Shown here: one piece after another, positions 10,593 through 54,323 of the stretch | Position numbering within the stretch: the stretch's first letter is position 1 | How the letters are laid out: each line of letters starts with the position of its first letter | IMG/VR virus record: IMGVR_UViG_3300018080_000167 | Coordinates: 1 to 64,000 of that record | Reading direction: 5' to 3' (one strand) | Origin: a virus | Length of the DNA stretch: 64,000 nucleotides | Program-made: the position numbers and the translations under genes | The notes under the pieces: generated by a model | Told to the model about the DNA's origin: nothing | Databases searched by the model: none | The model's input: only the letters and a program-made list of their open reading frames with translations

Positions 10593-10628
10593 CTTTTTTC
10601 CTTTCAGCAATTTTCCTCTCTATTTATA

Positions 10629-10656
10629 ATATCTACTAATTGCTGTTTTTTTCCAA
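10629..10656 (-). promoter_or_regulatory. class II phage promoter TTGGAA-N12-TAGTAGATAT
   Basis: Conserved bipartite motif upstream of SMC-like gene. Confidence 0.65.
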
Positions 10657-24023: not shown

Positions 24024-24081
24024 CTATGCGATACTCCATATCGTGTATTTAGATAGAAAATAAATAGCTTTTCTATATATA

Positions 24082-24109
24082 ATATCTACTAAATAGAAAA
24101 TTTTTCCAA
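24082..24109 (-). promoter_or_regulatory. class II phage promoter TTGGAA-N12-TAGTAGATAT
   Basis: Conserved motif heading the operon starting at 24023. Confidence 0.65.
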
Positions 24110-27415: not shown

Positions 27416-27949
27416 TTAAATGTCATTTTTTATTTGCCTACGTATGTTTCCTTTTGCCCTCTGTACTTTTAAATATGCTGTAGATTTACTTTTGTTTATT
27501 TTTTTAGCAATTTCTCCATATTTGTATCCCAATAGTCTGAACAACATTGTATTATCGCTGTCATGTTTTGCAAGAAGCTCTCTAACATATATTTCTTCAG
27601 CTATATTGTCGTGCTGTGAAGGCATTGGAACATTAGCCGAATGTAATGTTTTGCTACAATCTGGTATTTCATCCTTGTATTTCTTCCAGTATTGATAATT
27701 CGGAAACTTTAAATAATGCCCCTGGGTGCATAACATTTGTTTAATTGAACCAATTGCCCTTTTCATCATTGTTACTATTATTTGTTTGTCTTCAAGTTCA
27801 ATATTTTTCTTTCTCAAACTTTCATATGTTTCTATGGCTGCGAGGCGCTGCTCTTGCAAACAATCTTGATCATTGAAGCGCTCACATTCATATAGGTTTG
27901 TATGGAAAAATCTATCAAGCTGTTCTAAATAGTGTTCAATTGGTTTCAT
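27416..27949 (-). CDS. sigma-70/ECF-like transcription factor
   Basis: Region-2-like QDCLQEQRLAAIE; region-4 HTH LLGYKYGEIAKKINKSKSTAYLKVQRAK; AGGAGG RBS. Confidence 0.65.
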   Translation of the reverse strand: MKPIEHYLEQLDRFFHTNLYECERFNDQDCLQEQRLAAIETYESLRKKNIELEDKQIIVTMMKRAIGSIKQMLCTQGHYLKFPNYQYWKKYKDEIPDCSKTLHSANVPMPSQHDNIAEEIYVRELLAKHDSDNTMLFRLLGYKYGEIAKKINKSKSTAYLKVQRAKGNIRRQIKNDI

Positions 27950-29661
27950 GCTCGCCTCCTTAGCCACTCCTTGAATTTCGGGTTTACATCGTCTTGTGAG
28001 TTGAGCCATTCCAAAACTTCTTTAGCCTTCAATTCACCACTCTTTACTTTTTGCCGCAATGATCCAGCTTCAATCTTTTCCATCGTTTTCTCCTTTATTG
28101 GAAATGCGTACCTTTTGTAACAATTTCGTAATAAGTTTAATCCTTTTTGTTTTGTCTACAAATTTGCGTCGCCCAGGATTAAATTCACATTGTTGAATAA
28201 TACATAAAAGTTCTGCCTTGTCCCACATTTCAGGATGGTTGTCGTGACGTGTATATCGTGGTACAAGTTTAATATCCTTTTTATTTACAGCTTTCTTAAG
28301 TTTTGCCTCTACAAAATCACTATGAACTGCAACATTTGTTGATTTGTCGTCAAATACATAAAGATTTTGATAATGGCTAATGTATTGTTTTTCCATCATT
28401 AACTCCCGCAATGATTAATAAGTGCCTCGCCGTATTCAATAAGATTTTTCCTATCTTGAATATATTCATCTGTAAGAAAAAGTGTCCCAGGTTTACATGC
28501 ATACTTAATAGTTTCTAATGTAGCGTCAGACCACCGCTCCTTTTTTTTGTCGGATGTTGGGTTATATTGTTTCCCTCCAACTGATCCAAAAATTCTCTCA
28601 ATAAAATGACGATAGTCTTCTAAATTGTTGTTATGCATTATTATCTCCTATTCATAATATTCTTCTTCGACTTCTTCCATAAGTGAAGAGATTGTTTCTC
28701 TAATTTTTGTGTTGTCAGTATCATCTATTTTGCTGTCGCGTTGCCAAAACAATAACAGACAATGGAAAAGTCTATTTGTTGTATAATATTCATTATATTT
28801 CGGCAAAAAACTTTCAACTTCATCATAAAGGATTCTTAAACTTGAATTAATCTTTTTCTTTTTTTCTTCATCATATTCTCTACAATAATAATAATCTGTT
28901 AAATGTTTAAAAAAATCTTTAAAAATATCAAACTTTTCGTTTATAATAGATAAATAATCCATCTTTATCTCCTATATGGGTTATAAAACCATTTCTTTAC
29001 ATCTCCATTTAATACATTGTCTATTCCATTAGATGCATTACGCAAAACTCTATCTGCTCTCTGGGCTTTTGCAATTGCAACACCAATATGTCCATCATAT
29101 ATATCGTTCCAAATATCATGTAACATTTCTCTAGCATAGTTGATGTCTGCATTAGATTTGCTCAATTGACTTTTCTCTGCTTGTATCATTTCAGCCTCTT
29201 TCCATAGCGATATTTCATTCTGTTAAGAAACGAGACTGCCTCCTGCTCGGCAGAAAAACAATCATAAAAAACAGGTACTTTAAGCTCATTGAAAACATAA
29301 ATTTCTTTCCCTTTGCGAATACCGTTACATACTCCTTGCTTTTCCATAACTTCATCAAATGTTTTTTGTCTATTGATATTAAGTGTTGTCATAATGCACC
29401 TCAAATAATATTTTGTTTTTACTATTTAAAAAATCATTCAACATTTTCATCACATTGGTCCTTATTAAAATAAACTGAACAATAAGTGTCATAAAGGTCG
29501 TTAAAAAATGTACGAAATTTTTCTCTAAGTTGTTCCTTCTCTTCTTGTGAGTCAAGCTCATAATGGATATCTATTCCCACAAATCCTTCTTGAATACCAA
29601 CCGATGTGTCACCAGGAATGAAAACTTCCACCTTTTCAATTATCTCTGCCATAGTTTTGTA

Positions 29662-29948: not shown

Positions 29949-30620
29949 TTAATAGTTTTCGGCCTCTTCTCTTGTCATAAAAAAATGAATACCGTGTGTA
30001 CAAGTTTTCCGTATATCCGTATCGAAGTGATCCGCATAGACCGTTTCACCCTCTTTGTACACTACACCCGTATCATATAATCCGCACCCATTGCCCTCGA
30101 TTACCTTCACGTATTCAGCCCTACATTTTCTTGAAGTGGGCACTGATATGCGGGCCGCCTCGGCCGGAATACGAATCTTTATGACACCCCCCCTTACGGC
30201 CTTGTATGCGATAAAACTGCCCTCCTCCGGGCATACCGCGTACGGTGAAAATTTGCAGCCATCAATATTCGCGCCCCACAAATCCGCGCGCCGCAAATCC
30301 GCGTCCCGCAAATTCGCGCCCTGTAAATCCGCGCGCCGCAAATCCGCGTCCCGCAAATTCGCGCCCTGTAAATCCGCGCGCCGCAAATCCGCGCCCCACA
30401 AAGCCGCATCCCGCAAGTCCGCGCCCCACAAAGCCGCATCCCGCAAGTCCGCGCCCCGCAAATCCGCGTCCCGCAAATTCACACCCCACAAATCCGCGTT
30501 CCGCAAATCCACGTACCGCAAATCCGCGTCCCGCAAATCCGCGCGCCGCAAATCCGCGCCCTGCAAATTCGCACCCTGCAAGTCCGCGCCCCTTTTAATT
30601 TCATAGCCTTTTACGTTCAT
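29949..30620 (-). CDS. pentapeptide-repeat protein with DUF5758-like C-terminal domain
   Basis: About 20 A(D/N)Lxx repeats; PEEGSFIAYK...RKCRAE...GIHFFMTREEA; visibly GC-rich versus flanks. Confidence 0.9.
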   Translation of the reverse strand: MNVKGYEIKRGADLQGANLQGADLRRADLRDADLRYVDLRNADLWGVNLRDADLRGADLRDAALWGADLRDAALWGADLRRADLQGANLRDADLRRADLQGANLRDADLRRADLWGANIDGCKFSPYAVCPEEGSFIAYKAVRGGVIKIRIPAEAARISVPTSRKCRAEYVKVIEGNGCGLYDTGVVYKEGETVYADHFDTDIRKTCTHGIHFFMTREEAENY

Positions 30621-33802: not shown

Positions 33803-34348
33803 TTAAAAATTATCTTTTTTTAATGGTTTCCAACAAATCGCTGTTTTAATTTCTTCAAGCTCCTTTTTAATTTCTATATTTTCCTTTTCAAGTGCTGAAA
33901 TTTTTGCCAACAGCATTTCAATTATTTCTTCAAACATTTTATTTTTCTTCTTCCAGACTATCGAGCCTTTCTTCGACATCACAGATGCTATTTTCAAGCT
34001 CTGCGAGCCCTTCACTTAGCTCAAGTATTGCGGGTGATTGTTCAAGAGTGTCAAGTCGATCATCCAGCCGAATTGCAAAAGATTTAATAATTTCGAGCTT
34101 TTCTTCCAGCCTATCTATTTTTTCTTGCATTTCCTGTATCTCGACAACCATTTTGTATTCCATCATTATTCCTTTTCGTTAAGTTGCCTTTTAAGCTCTG
34201 CAATTTCTTGCTCAAGTTTATATACTTTTGATTTTGTATCGTTCATAATATTTATTATTGCCAACCATATTTGTGAAAAACTATCTGTAATTGCATTGCC
34301 TACTTCATAATCTTTATTAGCTCTTGGTACAGTTACTTTATTAAACAT
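33803..34348 (-). other. three short coiled-coil genes
   Basis: ORFs ending 33803, 33939..34166 and 34166..34348 with E/K/L heptads. Confidence 0.55.
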
Positions 34349-34363
34349 AATGGGTCCTTTCTG

Positions 34364-34624
34364 CTACTTTTTTGCAGCCCTAAAAAAGTCATATAATGAT
34401 TCGTGTTTATCTTTATAAAAATTTTCACCATCATCAAAGAGTGGCTCAGAAGCCTCACAGCCGTCAATTAGCTCATTTTCTTTTATCGTCTCTTCCAGTA
34501 CAACATCAAACCTTTTAAGCCAATAACGCGCCTCTCCTACCGTTACACCCAAACTTTTAGCCATCTCTCGGACATTAGAACTTGCTTCCGCCAATTCTTT
34601 AATAGTTTTTTTGTTGATATCCAT
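34364..34624 (-). CDS. helix-turn-helix protein
   Basis: NVREMAKSLGVTVGEARYWLKRF. Confidence 0.65.
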   Translation of the reverse strand: MDINKKTIKELAEASSNVREMAKSLGVTVGEARYWLKRFDVVLEETIKENELIDGCEASEPLFDDGENFYKDKHESLYDFFRAAKK

Positions 34625-34647
34625 AATAATACTCCTTTCTACATATA

Positions 34648-34675
34648 ATATCTACTATATTGTAATTTTTTCCTA
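34648..34675 (-). promoter_or_regulatory. class II promoter TAGGAA-N12-TAGTAGATAT
   Basis: Motif upstream of HTH operon. Confidence 0.6.
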
Positions 34676-34699
34676 ATGAATTTGAAATAATTTTATTTT

Positions 34700-35232
34700 C
34701 TCTATTGACAGAGGGGTTCCCTTTTCTCCCTTCCCATAATTTAAGTTTATGGCGGCGGCTACCCCTTCAGGGTAAGGAGGGGGGAGCTATGCCTAACCAT
34801 TATTTTTAGCAAAAAAAGCCTAAATAAAAAAGGCGCTCGCCGATTATGAAAAAAGAGACATTTTTTGGAAAACCTATTGCTCATCGCTTCTGTAGAGCGT
34901 CGAAAGCACGGTGGCATATTATATTTTCCTACATGTTCGGGTGCTGGTTGCAAAGGGAACCAGGGAAGCAGAGCCAGCGCGCACCGTGAGAGGCTCACTA
35001 AAATCGATGGTCTCCCGCCACTCGTGGCGATATATGCCTCCCGCTGTTTCCAGCTACTAAGCAATATATTCTTTTCCATCGACACCTCTCTTTTTCCCTA
35101 AAGCTATTAACTTAAGGTACTTACTAATTAGGTAGCTTTCAAACCTTTGGTTTTTTTATTAAAGAGAGTAACCTGTCTGAAATCTCTCTAATTTAACAGC
35201 AAAGCGATTCGCTGTAAAGAGAACCTTTCTCT
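34700..35232 (-). ncRNA. candidate ~500-nt structured non-coding RNA
   Basis: Directly behind class II promoter; GC-enriched; multiple nested helices including GCTG-GAAA-CAGC. Confidence 0.45.
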
Positions 35233-35240
35233 ATTATATA

Positions 35241-35269
35241 ATATCTACTAAAATGCCTCTTTTATTCAA
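35241..35269 (-). promoter_or_regulatory. class II promoter TTGAAT-N13-TAGTAGATAT
   Basis: Motif with no convincing ORF downstream. Confidence 0.6.
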
Positions 35270-35803
35270 TATTTTTTAAAATTTATTTTTTTTAATGAAA
35301 ATATTATAGAATTTATTATAAAATGTATTACTGCAAATATTAAAGGGGGGAGGGTTAAAGTGTAATTATAAAAGAAGTTATTAAGGATTGCCAATTTGGC
35401 AATTTCATCTCCAGTCGCTCTCGCTCTCTGAACACAAAAAGGTAATTATTATAAAAGTTATTAAAGTAAGTATTACTGTATAACAAAAAATAAAGAAGGC
35501 GACGATTATGCCGCCCTCAATATTTTCTTGATCTTAAAAAACTATTATTATTTTGGATCAATAGAATTATTATTCTTGCTGCACCCCGTTAAAACCATTA
35601 TAAATATGAACGCCCTCCTCTGTAGGTTCCCACTTCCTATAAACCTCATAGGATTGATTGCCATAGCGCACACTAGTAAAGCGTGCTACAAGCCGCCATT
35701 CGGATGCATAATGGTAATGATCAGCTAACCAAAGCAGCATTTTTTTGTCTCTTGGCTCTGCATATTTTTCAATTTCTTCTTTAATTTTCATAGTGTGGCT
35801 CTC

Positions 35804-36783: not shown

Positions 36784-37338
36784 ATGAACTACGAAAAAGA
36801 GTCTGGAAGTTTGTATGATAAAAGAGCAAGGTGGGCTTCAAGGCTCCGCAGTCTGCGCAACGAACTGAATGATACAGCATCAGAGCTTGGAATAGATGAT
36901 TATTTTTATAATCTGTTCAACGGGGCTGGTGATGTAATCCATAGTCTTATGTGCGAATTTATTGATTCTTTGAAGGAGGATGAAATGAAAGTTGACATTG
37001 AAGACACTTTACAGAAGAATGTTGATGAGGCAATTGAAAATTTGGAAGAGCTTATTGAAGAAACATGGGAAGACGAGGAAGAAAGAGAAGAGTTGACGGC
37101 ATTTGAGATTCAACAAAAACTCGATTATGATGGTAGGATTCACGAAATTATTGATAGTGCAGTACCTATTTATACAAAAGAGATCAAGGATACATGGTAT
37201 TTACACGAACACAAATTACTTGAGGCATACGAAAATGAAGGACTTGGGAAAAACCCCCACGAGAACGATGGGATGGTTGCAATCTTTTGTTACATTTCAC
37301 AAAAGGTTTTTGAATGGCTTTTCCAAGAGTACAATTGA
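36784..37338 (+). CDS. Ocr-like acidic DNA-mimic (anti-restriction) protein with N-terminal extension
   Basis: IHEIIDSAVPIYTKEI resembles T7 Ocr IHMAADNAVPHYYADI; very D/E-rich; first rightward early gene. Confidence 0.65.
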   Translation: MNYEKESGSLYDKRARWASRLRSLRNELNDTASELGIDDYFYNLFNGAGDVIHSLMCEFIDSLKEDEMKVDIEDTLQKNVDEAIENLEELIEETWEDEEEREELTAFEIQQKLDYDGRIHEIIDSAVPIYTKEIKDTWYLHEHKLLEAYENEGLGKNPHENDGMVAIFCYISQKVFEWLFQEYN

Positions 37339-41062: not shown

Positions 41063-41091
41063 TTGAATGTATTAGTGCGATTAGTAGATAT
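41063..41091 (+). promoter_or_regulatory. class II promoter TTGAAT-N13-TAGTAGATAT
   Basis: Upstream of HNH-like gene. Confidence 0.6.
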
Positions 41092-41108
41092 TAAATGTAG
41101 GTGATATT

Positions 41109-44834: not shown

Positions 44835-44862
44835 TTGGAAACATTCTCTGATTAGTAGATAT
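44835..44862 (+). promoter_or_regulatory. class II promoter TTGGAA-N12-TAGTAGATAT
   Basis: Heads the right-arm operon starting at 44912. Confidence 0.65.
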
Positions 44863-46651
44863 TGTAATATAGAGGTGGGACAGTTACTTTTACCCTTAGG
44901 AGAAAATTATTATGAAAGATAAGGTACTTGAGGCAATAAATGGAAATATTAAGAAATGGAAAAATATTAAACGAGGGAAAGGGGCAGATGAGGGAATAGA
45001 TTGCCCTCTTTGCCAACTATTCTTTACAAATGATTGTAGGGGTTGTCCTATTTATGAACAAGGTGGTTTTCCCTACTGTGTCGCTACCCCCTGGGCTAAA
45101 TGGTCTGATCATCAGCGAATTTATCACGACAGAATGGCAGGTGAAGGAGTAGGACCACTTAAGATATTGTGTAGTAAATGTAGGAGTTTGGCTGCTGAAG
45201 AGATAAAGTTTCTTAAAGGGGTTCGCAAACGATATATTAAAAATAAAAAAGATTATGAACAGATATTGCGGCTTATGACAGACACTTATTAATAATTTTG
45301 AAAGGAACCCATTATGACAATCACACCGATTAAATGGATGCGAGTAAAGAGAAATATTCTTTTTGTATCGTCTATTCCGGCGCTTGATGCTGAGAAAAGA
45401 TGTTATGGCTTGACAGAGTTGATAAATCCGAAACAGGCGCTCTTTAATGATCGCATTGAAGTGTTGGGCAACAATGGCAATTATATCTTCGACTTTGAGA
45501 ACGAGGTGGATACCTTCTGCGAGCTTTTAAATTTCTTTTGATCGTCGCTATGCGACAAAAACAAGGAGAAAAAAAAAGAATGAAAGCAGTATGTAAAAAA
45601 TGCAAGTATTGTAGATTCGAGCAGACAATTTGGGGTTTTAATAGCTATTATAAATGTCTTGTTGAGCCAACAGATATTACTATTGATTTTGTAACAGGAA
45701 ATGTGATATCTTGTTATAGAAGGTGCTCTGATGTAAACTCAGATGGTCATTGTAAACATTTTAAATATAAGGGGTGGATAAAACTACTTTTTGACCACCT
45801 TTTCAGAGTGGGGTTTTGAATATGAATGTAAATTTAATTGGAAATATACCGGCAAAAGAAAATGACTGTGTGACGGACGACAATCTTGCAGTTGCATTGT
45901 GTACCTATTTTGAATCGCTTCCAGAATGTCCAGAGGATGATATCAATACAGAAGTTGGTAGGTCTCAGTGGGCAATGGATAAAACAGATAATCTTTTGAA
46001 AAGAATAATAGAGGTGGTTTCTAATGAAAAAACCGATTGAAATTACTACACACCAGATAAGAAATATTGTTAAAGAACAGAAAAGACTCTCAGAAATGAT
46101 TCAGGATTACGCATATTCAATTGACAACGCGCTTGACGAACGCCCAGACATCCAAGGGATGATAAAACATACCGACCTTTTTCCTTGGTACTGGATAAGT
46201 TATGGCGAAAAGTGTTATGCCTTTGAGGTTGTAGAGGCATTCCCAGCCAATGAAAATGATAGGTACCCAAAGCCTGGGACACAATTATATTATAATGACG
46301 AATGCAAGGTACAAGATGAAGATGGCGTTGAAATGATGGTTAATAAAAGTATTACTACTATAGAAGAGCAGTGTGGAGATGTCGTCTGTAAGTTTATCGC
46401 AGAGGCGCACACCTATCTATTAGGGAAAGAAATTTCAAAGCTTATTAAGGGTAAAAAATTATGAAAAAACTGATAAGAGTAGATAAGAAGAAAAACGATG
46501 GTTTTGTATATGACTATGATCAGATAGTAGAACTTACAGGTAAAACTAGGGAATATATTGGTGGTGAAGCTTTATTTATGACAAACGTTCAAGCGGTAAT
46601 TTTAGCAATGCAAGAATGTGGCTATGTTGAAGTAATTAACGAGGGGGGAGA

Positions 46652-46949: not shown

Positions 46950-47384
46950 TTGAATGTAACAGTATATACAGACGGTTCATCAAACTCTATTAGGCTGTGT
47001 GGCAACAGAAGGGGTGGCTGGGCAGCAGTATTCGTAGAAGACGACAATCCAGACAAAAAGGCTATGCATATTTGCGGCGGCGAGGAAGATACTACGAACA
47101 ACAGAATGGAAATGACGGCAGCGCTTGAAGCTTTAAAGTTTGCTGATCTTTATGACAATATGACAATTTATTCTGATTCGCAATATGTTGTAAAGGGGTT
47201 TAACTCTTGGATACACGGATGGTTGAAAAATAATTTTAAAGATGGTACTATAAAAAATCAGGATCTTTGGGGAAAGTTTATACCATATCTTGCAATGGAT
47301 AACATTACTATTAAATGGATCAAGGGACATAGTAAGAATAGGTGGAATGATGAGGCGGATAAACTTGCTCGCCGCGCAAGGTAG
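46950..47384 (+). CDS. rnhA: ribonuclease HI
   Basis: VYTDGS, TTNNRMEM, YSDSQYV, WIKGH, NDEADKLA. Confidence 0.95.
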   Translation: MNVTVYTDGSSNSIRLCGNRRGGWAAVFVEDDNPDKKAMHICGGEEDTTNNRMEMTAALEALKFADLYDNMTIYSDSQYVVKGFNSWIHGWLKNNFKDGTIKNQDLWGKFIPYLAMDNITIKWIKGHSKNRWNDEADKLARRAR

Positions 47385-53007: not shown

Positions 53008-53035
53008 TTGAACAAAATCGCAAATTAGTAGATAT
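53008..53035 (+). promoter_or_regulatory. class II promoter TTGAAC-N12-TAGTAGATAT
   Basis: Upstream of 53057 gene. Confidence 0.65.
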
Positions 53036-54323
53036 TATATATAGGAGAACATCACTATGCTTTTAAAACTCTTGGACAATATATGGCTTTTTTTACGGTT
53101 TATTGATTTTCGTGTCATAGAGTCTGCAGATGATATTCCTTTCGATGTGCGATATTTTTTAAAACGTATTGTAATGACACTTAGCTATATTAAGCCTATT
53201 TTTTTATGTGATGGTGACTATGCTGTTACAAATGGACTCTTTGCAATAATGGCACATAAATTTCGCAGAGTAGAGAAAGAAATGCGCCATTTGGTAAACT
53301 CTGGAAAATATAAAAGAGAAATCAATTGGGCTATTGACAGACTTGAAGAATTGGCGAACAATAAATTTGAAAATGACTTTCACAATGCCCACGAAAACAA
53401 ATGGGGTGAACGAGAAGTTCATCTTGATGGACAAAACTTTGATGTTTATGGAGCAAAAGCCAAGACGGAAGAAGAGAAAGAGCAGGAAAGAAAAGAATTT
53501 GTGGCTGCATACAAAGAGGCTGCAGAAAAAAGAGCAAAAACAATGCGGGATGTGATGTTGTTTATTGGAGAAAACGCAGATCATTGGTGGGACTAATAAA
53601 AACTATGAAAGCTAAAACGTGCGAAGAATTAAGAAATTTGCTTTATAATGCAGCAGAAGAGTTGGCTGAAAGGGTAGCTCCACTGTATAAGGTGCTTAAT
53701 TGGGAGTGGGGCATTTTCAGGAGAGGCAGGGGGCAAAACATTCCTACAGAAAAGGATATTTGTGTCTGTCTTATCAGATTGATAAATTCATTAATAGATG
53801 AAAATATTTGTGGATATACAGAAACAGGCGGACTCTTTGTTAGAATTGAGGAAGATGAAAGCAATTGGTTTGTTGGTACAGTTGGATTTTTAGTTACAAA
53901 GGAACGTTATGTCAAAGACGAGTAAAAATTTTGTTAAAGTTGTTGGTGTGGAATTCGATAATGAACACGATAAAATGATTAGGGTCGAGTGTCCATATTG
54001 CAATCTTATACATAAGCATAGCGGTTATGGACTAAGACAAAGTTCGTGCTACCCTGGTGGATTTTATTATATTATTAAGGATGCGAATGATTAATTTAGA
54101 CCCTACAAAGTTAAACCAGCTTGCAGACATTATCTTTTGTGTTGGAGCAATAGTTGGTATTATATTATTTATAATTCTTTTAATTAATGTGATTTCTATT
54201 AAAAAAGAATTAATTCATTTAAAAAATAAGATGGAATATCAAAATATTATTACTTCTAAGATTTATAAATTATAATATGAAGAAAATTTGATTTTAACTC
54301 ACAAAGCACAAGGAGAAGAATAA

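Follow-up and report, generated by a model that had tools for sequence, protein, structure and literature searches.

On the minus strand of an uncultured phage genome of ~144.5 kb, a promoter of a phage-specific family (35236-35269) is followed by ~590 bases of unusually GC-rich DNA, with no gene start at the distance seen behind the other copies of this promoter. We tentatively read this element as a lineage-specific, non-protein-coding transcribed spacer, which may be the cis leader RNA of the adjacent HTH operon. The preliminary description of this DNA, which had proposed a large structured non-coding RNA with its own promoter, is accurate as an account of the sequence; a large structured RNA is unproven.

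The phage genome and its relatives

The window, i.e., the whole stretch of DNA analysed (64,000 nt), covers the initial 64 kb of an IMG/VR record of 74.8 kb (G000, IMGVR_UViG_3300018080_000167). This record and a second one of 69.9 kb (G001, IMGVR_UViG_3300018080_007253, L135) are the two halves of one phage genome of ~144.5 kb: positions 1-123 of the window are 100% identical over 123 nt to G001 69825-69947, and at the other junction G000 74494-74773 and G001 1-201 hold a common tandem-repeat region. The genome has a GC content of 34% and a coding fraction of 81-96% (by a crude gene call), and its gene set includes a T4-type terminase, a portal, a class II RNR, RtcB, sugar-nucleotide enzymes, RNase HI, and three tRNAs. 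Cultured phages are very distant, with terminase identities of ~24-29% to Bacillus and Clostridium phages. As a hint to the host, the GDP-mannose dehydratase gene is uninformative, its identities of ~50% being spread over many phyla.

Closer relatives, as judged by the terminase, fall into two groups. Those at 82, 78, 70, and 69% identity are found only on contigs of 2.5-15.5 kb, and those at 53-57% lie on long IMG/VR contigs. The element was not found in the long relatives by BLAST, by a covariance model of its three-way junction, or by translation of its open reading frame, and they also lack the adjacent HTH gene. The junction covariance model (R1) found nothing in G001 or in G003-G006, a search that covered relatives at 41-57% terminase identity; a 19-nt match to the P3 hairpin of the junction in G003, one of these relatives, falls within coding sequence for a Zn-ribbon and was discarded as chance. 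Similarly, the proteins encoded around the element (86, 138, and 176 aa, and an 822-aa helicase), used as baits, have no close relatives in IMG/VR. The whole neighborhood is, by these comparisons, lineage-specific, so that the absence of the element from relatives says nothing about its function.

At the DNA level, no homologue of the element was found in phage records, IMG/VR, metagenome contigs, or GTDB genomes, the GTDB search for a donor sequence being of limited sensitivity, and the exact DNA pattern of the two junction hairpins retrieved nothing from IMG/VR. Of the 31-mers in 34300-35700, 18% occur in one salt-lake run and 6% in another, and no RNA dataset is among those listed as sharing them.

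Promoters and the GC-rich island

The element and its surroundings comprise the following features, given in the direction of transcription.

35387-35403: 17-bp perfect palindrome ATTGCCAAATTGGCAAT, containing the -35 box of the sigma-70-like promoter; unique in the window at 0-1 mismatch
35365-35394, minus strand: host-type sigma-70-like promoter, TTGGCA-18-TATAAT, 11/12 matches in a promoter scan
35236-35269, minus strand: phage-specific promoter, TTGAAT (35264-35269), 13-nt spacer, TAGTAGATATTATAT (35236-35250)
35101-35235, minus strand: AT-rich 5' segment with five simple hairpins, including 35217-35232, 35196-35215, and 35163-35189; z -1.5
35003-35083, minus strand: three-way junction, with P1 at 35076-35083/35003-35010, P2 at 35030-35069, and P3 at 35016-35029
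34759-35079, minus strand: ORF106, 106 codons from ATG, or 108 from a GTG at 35085
34907-34988, minus strand: second domain, with a CACGGTG/CACCGTG closure and a CTGGTT/AACCAG stem; z -0.3
34826-34841, minus strand: terminator-like GGCGAGCGCC + TTTTTT, with a stem of 3 bp and a tetraloop
34710-34795, minus strand: GC-rich 3' segment, a C-run with CCTCCTTA (34773-34780, matching the anti-SD), then GGGAAGGGAGAAAAGGGAACC
34697-34706, minus strand: AATAGAGAAA, direct repeat of transcript bases 1-10 (35226-35235)
34643-34657, minus strand: second copy of the phage promoter, followed by an RBS and the 86-aa HTH-like gene
34364-34624, minus strand: 86-aa HTH-like gene, weak match to HTH_29

The promoter family has the layout TTGRAW-N12/13-TAGTAGATATTATAT-(N)TAGA and 12 copies in the whole genome, located in the window at 456-470, 10624-10638, 24077-24091, 34643-34657, 35236-35250, 41082-41096, 44853-44867, and 53026-53040, and in G001 at 37061, 49109, 62998, and 64484. 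At up to 2 mismatches, the 15-mer TAGTAGATATTATAT occurs 9 times in the window vs. 0.5 expected. The family stands before replication, nucleotide-metabolism, and large structural genes. In IMG/VR and metagenome contigs, the 15-mer gave single, random-looking matches only, and BLAST of the contigs that bear it against the genome returned only L026, identified as the genome's own second half, together with a few protein matches of 25-56%. A sigma-region-4-like ORF is present at 27416-28009.

The copy at 35236-35269 is a perfect match to the consensus, and the class II promoter that the preliminary description had placed here on the minus strand is a member of this 12-copy family. It is also the only exception to a rule that holds for 11 of the 12 copies, where an RBS and a start codon follow the promoter after ~10-70 nt. 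Here, the AT-rich segment 35101-35235 has no start codon near the promoter; the first ATG lies 157 nt downstream, which leaves a leader far longer than at the other 11 copies.

Behind the promoter, the GC content rises to 0.50-0.56 vs. a genome mean of 0.34. The richest 150 nt (0.56) are at the top of all non-coding gaps in the genome, the tRNA gap having 0.45, and only the pentapeptide-repeat gene exceeds the element in GC; the earlier observation of ~530 nt of GC-enriched DNA was thus well founded. The GC skew flips its sign inside the element, and the RNA is not consistently G-rich. The element is single-copy in the genome, and its surroundings are cassette-like, with other foreign GC-rich DNA nearby and a strand switch at a distance of 1.5 kb.

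Upstream of the phage promoter, the host-type promoter at 35365-35394 could possibly provide a second, earlier transcription entry point for the element, and the palindrome ATTGCCAAATTGGCAAT (35387-35403) that contains its -35 box looks, from its sequence, like an operator. AT-rich repeats with 12-nt spacing (TATTA boxes) occur in the same region, at 35284-35342 and 35429-35487.

Transcript boundaries

Two terminator scans found no intrinsic terminator between 35235 and 34350, and the same scans found the clear terminator of the upstream operon at 35495-35518. The GGCGAGCGCC-T6 sequence at 34826-34841 was called by neither scan and is too weak to count as a terminator. With no terminator, an RNA that starts at the element's promoter should read through the second promoter copy at 34643-34657 into the 86-aa HTH-like gene and its operon at 34624, and it would therefore be a long alternative leader and not a discrete gene, unless it is processed. 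The element has, as a sequence match, a promoter of its own, and it lacks a 3' end defined by an intrinsic terminator; on this point, the discrete RNA gene proposed earlier does not hold as far as the sequence goes.

The element is bracketed by the two copies of the 10-nt direct repeat (34697-34706 and 35226-35235). This repeat may be due to chance, since there is another perfect 10-nt repeat within the same 1 kb. In the GC-rich 3' segment, the RNA of 34773-34792 has CCUCCUUA, the same sequence as at the anti-Shine-Dalgarno end of 16S rRNA, and the plus strand of the same positions reads TAAGGAGG, followed after 8 nt by an ATG that opens a 6-codon ORF.

Coding potential

The preliminary description had found no credible protein in the region. 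The codon statistics and the lack of protein relatives mostly agree with this statement, on which the length of one open frame and its start site cast some doubt. On the minus strand, the frame 34759-35097 is open for 112 codons and contains ORF106. The probability of such an open frame was 0.010-0.015 in dinucleotide shuffles of the whole region and 0.05-0.07 when the local GC content was kept. The other two frames of the same strand contain 15 stop triplets and that of ORF106 none, and GAGGTG stands 5 nt before the ATG at 35079. Alternative genetic codes gave no better ORF in the stretch.

The composition of ORF106 is that of non-coding DNA in most respects. Its GC content at codon positions 1, 2, and 3 is 0.46, 0.46, and 0.48, and there is no 3-periodicity (chi-square p = 0.15). 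Among the controls, four of five neighboring genes of 60-108 aa gave p < 0.03 (the other 108-aa ORF, 0.059), and the pentapeptide gene gave 4e-6. G has frequencies of 0.17, 0.24, and 0.29 at the three positions, with its minimum at position 1, contrary to the universal pattern. ORF106 has a log-ratio of -0.26 per codon vs. +0.21 +/- 0.13 for the genes of the phage, i.e., ~3.6 sd below them. The predicted protein, with 0 Asp, 10 Arg, and 16 Leu, resembles a random translation; its score against the universal amino-acid composition is ambiguous, corresponding to the 14th percentile among real genes but to the top 13% among shadow ORFs.

In database searches, ORF106 has no relatives among 5.8 billion protein clusters and 1.84 billion representatives, where it does not even find itself, which means that no source's gene caller had called this frame. 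This negative extends to the variants of the ORF with a GTG or TTG start. No Pfam or PHROG family was found for the stretch in any frame. The genuine small genes next to it (86, 73, and 60 aa) are likewise without relatives, so that the orphan status of ORF106 says little. An AlphaFold2 model of the protein (pLDDT 54, pTM 0.27) and a search of the ESM Atlas (recognition 1093, best score 0.79) were uninformative either way. The start site of ORF106, SD and ATG, is situated within the most stable helix of the region.

RNA folding and known RNA families

Over its whole length, the 536-nt RNA folds better than shuffled sequences, with a z of -3.4 for the transcribed strand vs. -2.05 for the opposite strand. 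By parts, only the 93-nt window of the three-way junction beats the shuffles (z -4.1); the values are -1.5 for the 5' hairpins, -0.9 for the 221-nt GC core, -0.3 for the second domain, and -1.6 for the 3' part. All the helices described earlier are present in the sequence, i.e., the 5' hairpins (35217-35232, 35196-35215, and 35163-35189), the TCGATGG/CCATCGA closure (35076-35082/35004-35010) around GCTG-GAAA-CAGC and CGCCA-CGAG-TGGCG, and the CACGGTG/CACCGTG closure (34982-34988/34907-34913) with CTGGTT/AACCAG. What these values do not support is a large structured RNA, given that only the ~80-nt three-way junction exceeds the shuffles.

In the junction, P2 has an internal loop and a GAAA tetraloop, and P3 a CGAG loop; the SD-like GAGGTG (35083-35088) lies at, and the ATG (35077-35079) within, the 5' strand of P1. 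The z value is similar for the minus (-4.1) and the plus (-4.3) strand, and the MFE is -30.2 vs. -22.7 kcal/mol, 7.5 kcal/mol better on the transcribed strand. The two hairpins GCUG-GAAA-CAGC (P2c) and CGCCA-CGAG-UGGCG (P3) have pair probabilities above 0.93 in every context. P1, P2a, and P2b reach 0.79-0.99 only when the RNA ends near 34880 and drop to 0.1-0.24 in the full transcript, i.e., the closing helices of the junction are outcompeted once the 3' part is included.

To place this stability on a genomic scale, 19272 windows of 93 nt from both genome halves were scanned with adjustment for GC. The junction ranks 133 (0.7%), and the three true tRNAs of the phage rank 120, 632, and 736. The junction is thus as stable as a real small RNA, and stability alone cannot separate it from more than 100 other windows, many of them coding. 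Since ~0.7% of the windows of the genome fold equally well, one such window among the 66 in the stretch is unremarkable.

The second domain (34907-34988), which had been described as a structure, is at the level of chance: in addition to its z of -0.3, its closing helix has a probability of 0.81 in one of five contexts and of 0.0-0.29 in the other four. AAAGGGAACC (34715-34724) is perfectly complementary over 10 nt to GGTTCCCTTT of this domain (34952-34961), and the long-range helix between them has a pair probability of 0.00-0.14. Several folds compete with one another, the two-domain model among them.

In a search of the whole genome against Rfam 15 at the gathering threshold, no family matched the element, in line with the earlier statement that signatures of tmRNA, RNase P, SRP, and group I introns are absent. 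The families covered included these as well as group II introns, GOLLD, ROOL, pRNA, riboswitches, and small ribozymes. Over the stretch, the best hits at E <= 10 reached 12-20 bits vs. thresholds of 41-80, with E values of 0.4-10. By-eye readings of a hammerhead, a tRNA-like element, a group II domain 5, and an attP/tRNA fragment were dropped, as neither Rfam nor ARAGORN supported them.

A possible cis leader of the HTH operon

According to the reading that we favor, the phage promoter at 35236-35269, of the type served by a sigma-like factor, and perhaps also the host-type promoter at 35365-35394, would start an RNA without a gene start behind it. This RNA would extend past the second promoter copy and enter the HTH operon at 34624, and the element would act in cis as the long 5' leader of an alternative operon transcript. 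The GC-rich part would fold co-transcriptionally into the three-way junction at 35003-35083 with its two very stable tetraloop hairpins, and the junction could govern the stability of the RNA, pausing, or the binding of a protein such as the product of the downstream HTH gene. We infer from the sequence that the region is transcribed and that the junction forms, and likewise any regulatory effect that it may have.

By its position, the element would belong to the 5' untranslated part of an mRNA. It has no expression platform: there is no terminator, and no SD is sequestered other than that of the doubtful ORF106. The HTH gene has its own promoter copy between itself and the element. The leader reading is weakened by the lack of homologues, by a fold that is at chance outside the junction, by closing helices that are outcompeted, and by the length of ORF106, greater than chance, with a good SD and ATG. 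More generally, an elevated GC content within AT-rich genomes is an established sign of structured RNA, which is the basis of the GC-IGR approach (PMC11109978). In a survey of this type, 2948 of 4714 long GC-rich gaps proved to be ORFs, and about one-fifth of the remaining gaps gave ranked RNA motifs (PMC11109978).

Alternative explanations

An orphan small-protein cassette would account for the open frame, which would then encode a 106-aa protein, very basic and either foreign or recent in origin, expressed as an early or middle gene. We consider this possible, if doubtful. The frame of 112 codons is longer than chance (P 0.01-0.07), the other two frames hold 15 stops, and GAGGTG precedes the ATG by 5 nt; moreover, the true small neighbors are orphans too, and GC-rich foreign genes do exist in this phage, as the pentapeptide gene demonstrates. 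However, the frame has no codon periodicity, its G content is lowest at position 1, its codon log-ratio is ~3.6 sd low, its composition is random-like (0 Asp), and no gene caller had called it. In addition, its SD and ATG would be inside the most stable helix, behind a 157-nt leader far longer than at the other 11 copies. The lack of a coding signal is also consistent with acquired DNA that is decaying without function, either the remnant of a cassette or a filler between tandem promoters that serve the HTH operon, an explanation that we hold to be rather doubtful. It agrees with a single-copy element that is found nowhere else, lies in a cassette-like region, is bracketed by 10-nt direct repeats, and for the most part folds no better than shuffles. 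On the other hand, a compact genome of 34% GC would be expected to lose or AT-enrich useless DNA of 50% GC, the promoter copy is a perfect consensus, and no donor was found in a search of limited sensitivity.

Two further explanations give the hairpins a function outside a leader. The element might encode a discrete structured ncRNA that acts in trans and represents a new class, ~350-530 nt long, transcribed from the middle-type promoter and released by processing. Its own promoter, the GC island, the junction, the better fold on the transcribed strand, and the lack of an Rfam family are in keeping with this hypothesis, which nevertheless seems unlikely to us: there is no defined 3' end, only ~80 nt beat chance, the folds compete, and the covariance model finds no homologue in relatives at 41-57% terminase identity. 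It is just as unlikely that the core of such an RNA would be the junction with its GAAA and CGAG loops, acting on phage or host targets. A site at the DNA level, formed by regulator-binding palindromes or by an R-loop-type origin such as T4 ori(uvsY) or ColE1 RNA II, is improbable, and we give equally little credit to CGCCAC-GA-GTGGCG, CACGGTG/CACCGTG, and TCGATGG/CCATCGA as candidate sites, e.g., for the adjacent HTH protein. The similar junction z on both strands (-4.1 and -4.3) is what DNA inverted repeats would give, the HTH gene lies directly downstream, a strand switch is 1.5 kb away, and the phage has an RNase HI. Yet no second copy of any of these palindromes occurs in the window, P1 and P2b contain G-U pairs that DNA could not form without mismatch, the transcript shows no consistent G-richness, and the RNase HI gene is 12 kb away.

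Comparison with known systems

The phi29 pRNA needs intermolecular loop pairing. Like the element, this RNA (RF00044) is a phage RNA with a three-way junction and its own promoter. It differs in that the element gave no Rfam match at E <= 10, and in its setting: the pRNA is found in small phi29-like podoviruses, at the end of the genome, whereas the element belongs to a phage of ~144.5 kb that has a terminase of the T4 type.

R-loop primers of replication origins are exemplified by T4 ori(uvsY)/ori(34) and ColE1 RNA II. The element shares with these systems a middle-type promoter followed by non-coding DNA and the presence of RNase HI in the phage. In contrast to them, its RNA is not consistently G-rich, and a GC island is found where an AT-rich unwinding element would be expected directly downstream. 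The RNase HI gene (46953-47378, plus strand; PF00075, E 1.8e-35) does not adjoin the element, from which it is separated by 12 kb, and the link to nearby iterons and RNase HI that had been suggested earlier is therefore weak.

Moron-like early cassettes resemble the element in having their own promoter, a small ORF with an RBS, and a foreign composition, and many such cassettes surround it. The differences are that ORF106 has no coding statistics except its length, that its leader measures 157 nt, and that no terminator closes the cassette.

The element also resembles the GC-IGR candidates of the Breaker laboratory (PMC11109978, PMC6429828), which likewise consist of a long gap with a GC content far above the mean and no known ORF. 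They may also have predicted hairpins with stable tetraloops and stand upstream of a gene for a nucleic-acid-binding protein, the category of the "protein-binding candidate." However, those candidates were ranked by covariation among many representatives; with one representative, the element would be 'unnamed' or 'low-ranking' by their criteria.

Should the element prove to be a functional RNA, it would join the few large ncRNAs known from an uncultured phage lineage of ~145 kb, and be a case of the GC-island rule finding RNA genes in viruses. At present, it is a single-copy orphan and a reasonable low-priority candidate, the value of which lies in a flagged candidate and a well-defined phage promoter family, and not in a discovery.

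Other observations on the phage and its family

Two features of this phage and its relatives were noted in passing. The gene for a protein with pentapeptide repeats and DUF5758 (29949-30620, minus strand) has a GC content of 0.62-0.68 with normal codon periodicity and foreign codons, as if it had been acquired recently from a high-GC donor. In this phage family, several terminases (P0041, P0045, P0056, P0058, P0065, P0073, and P0085) are ~1000 aa long and carry the intein/LAGLIDADG Pfam domains PF14528 and PF14890, which indicates probable intein insertions in the large terminase of these relatives.
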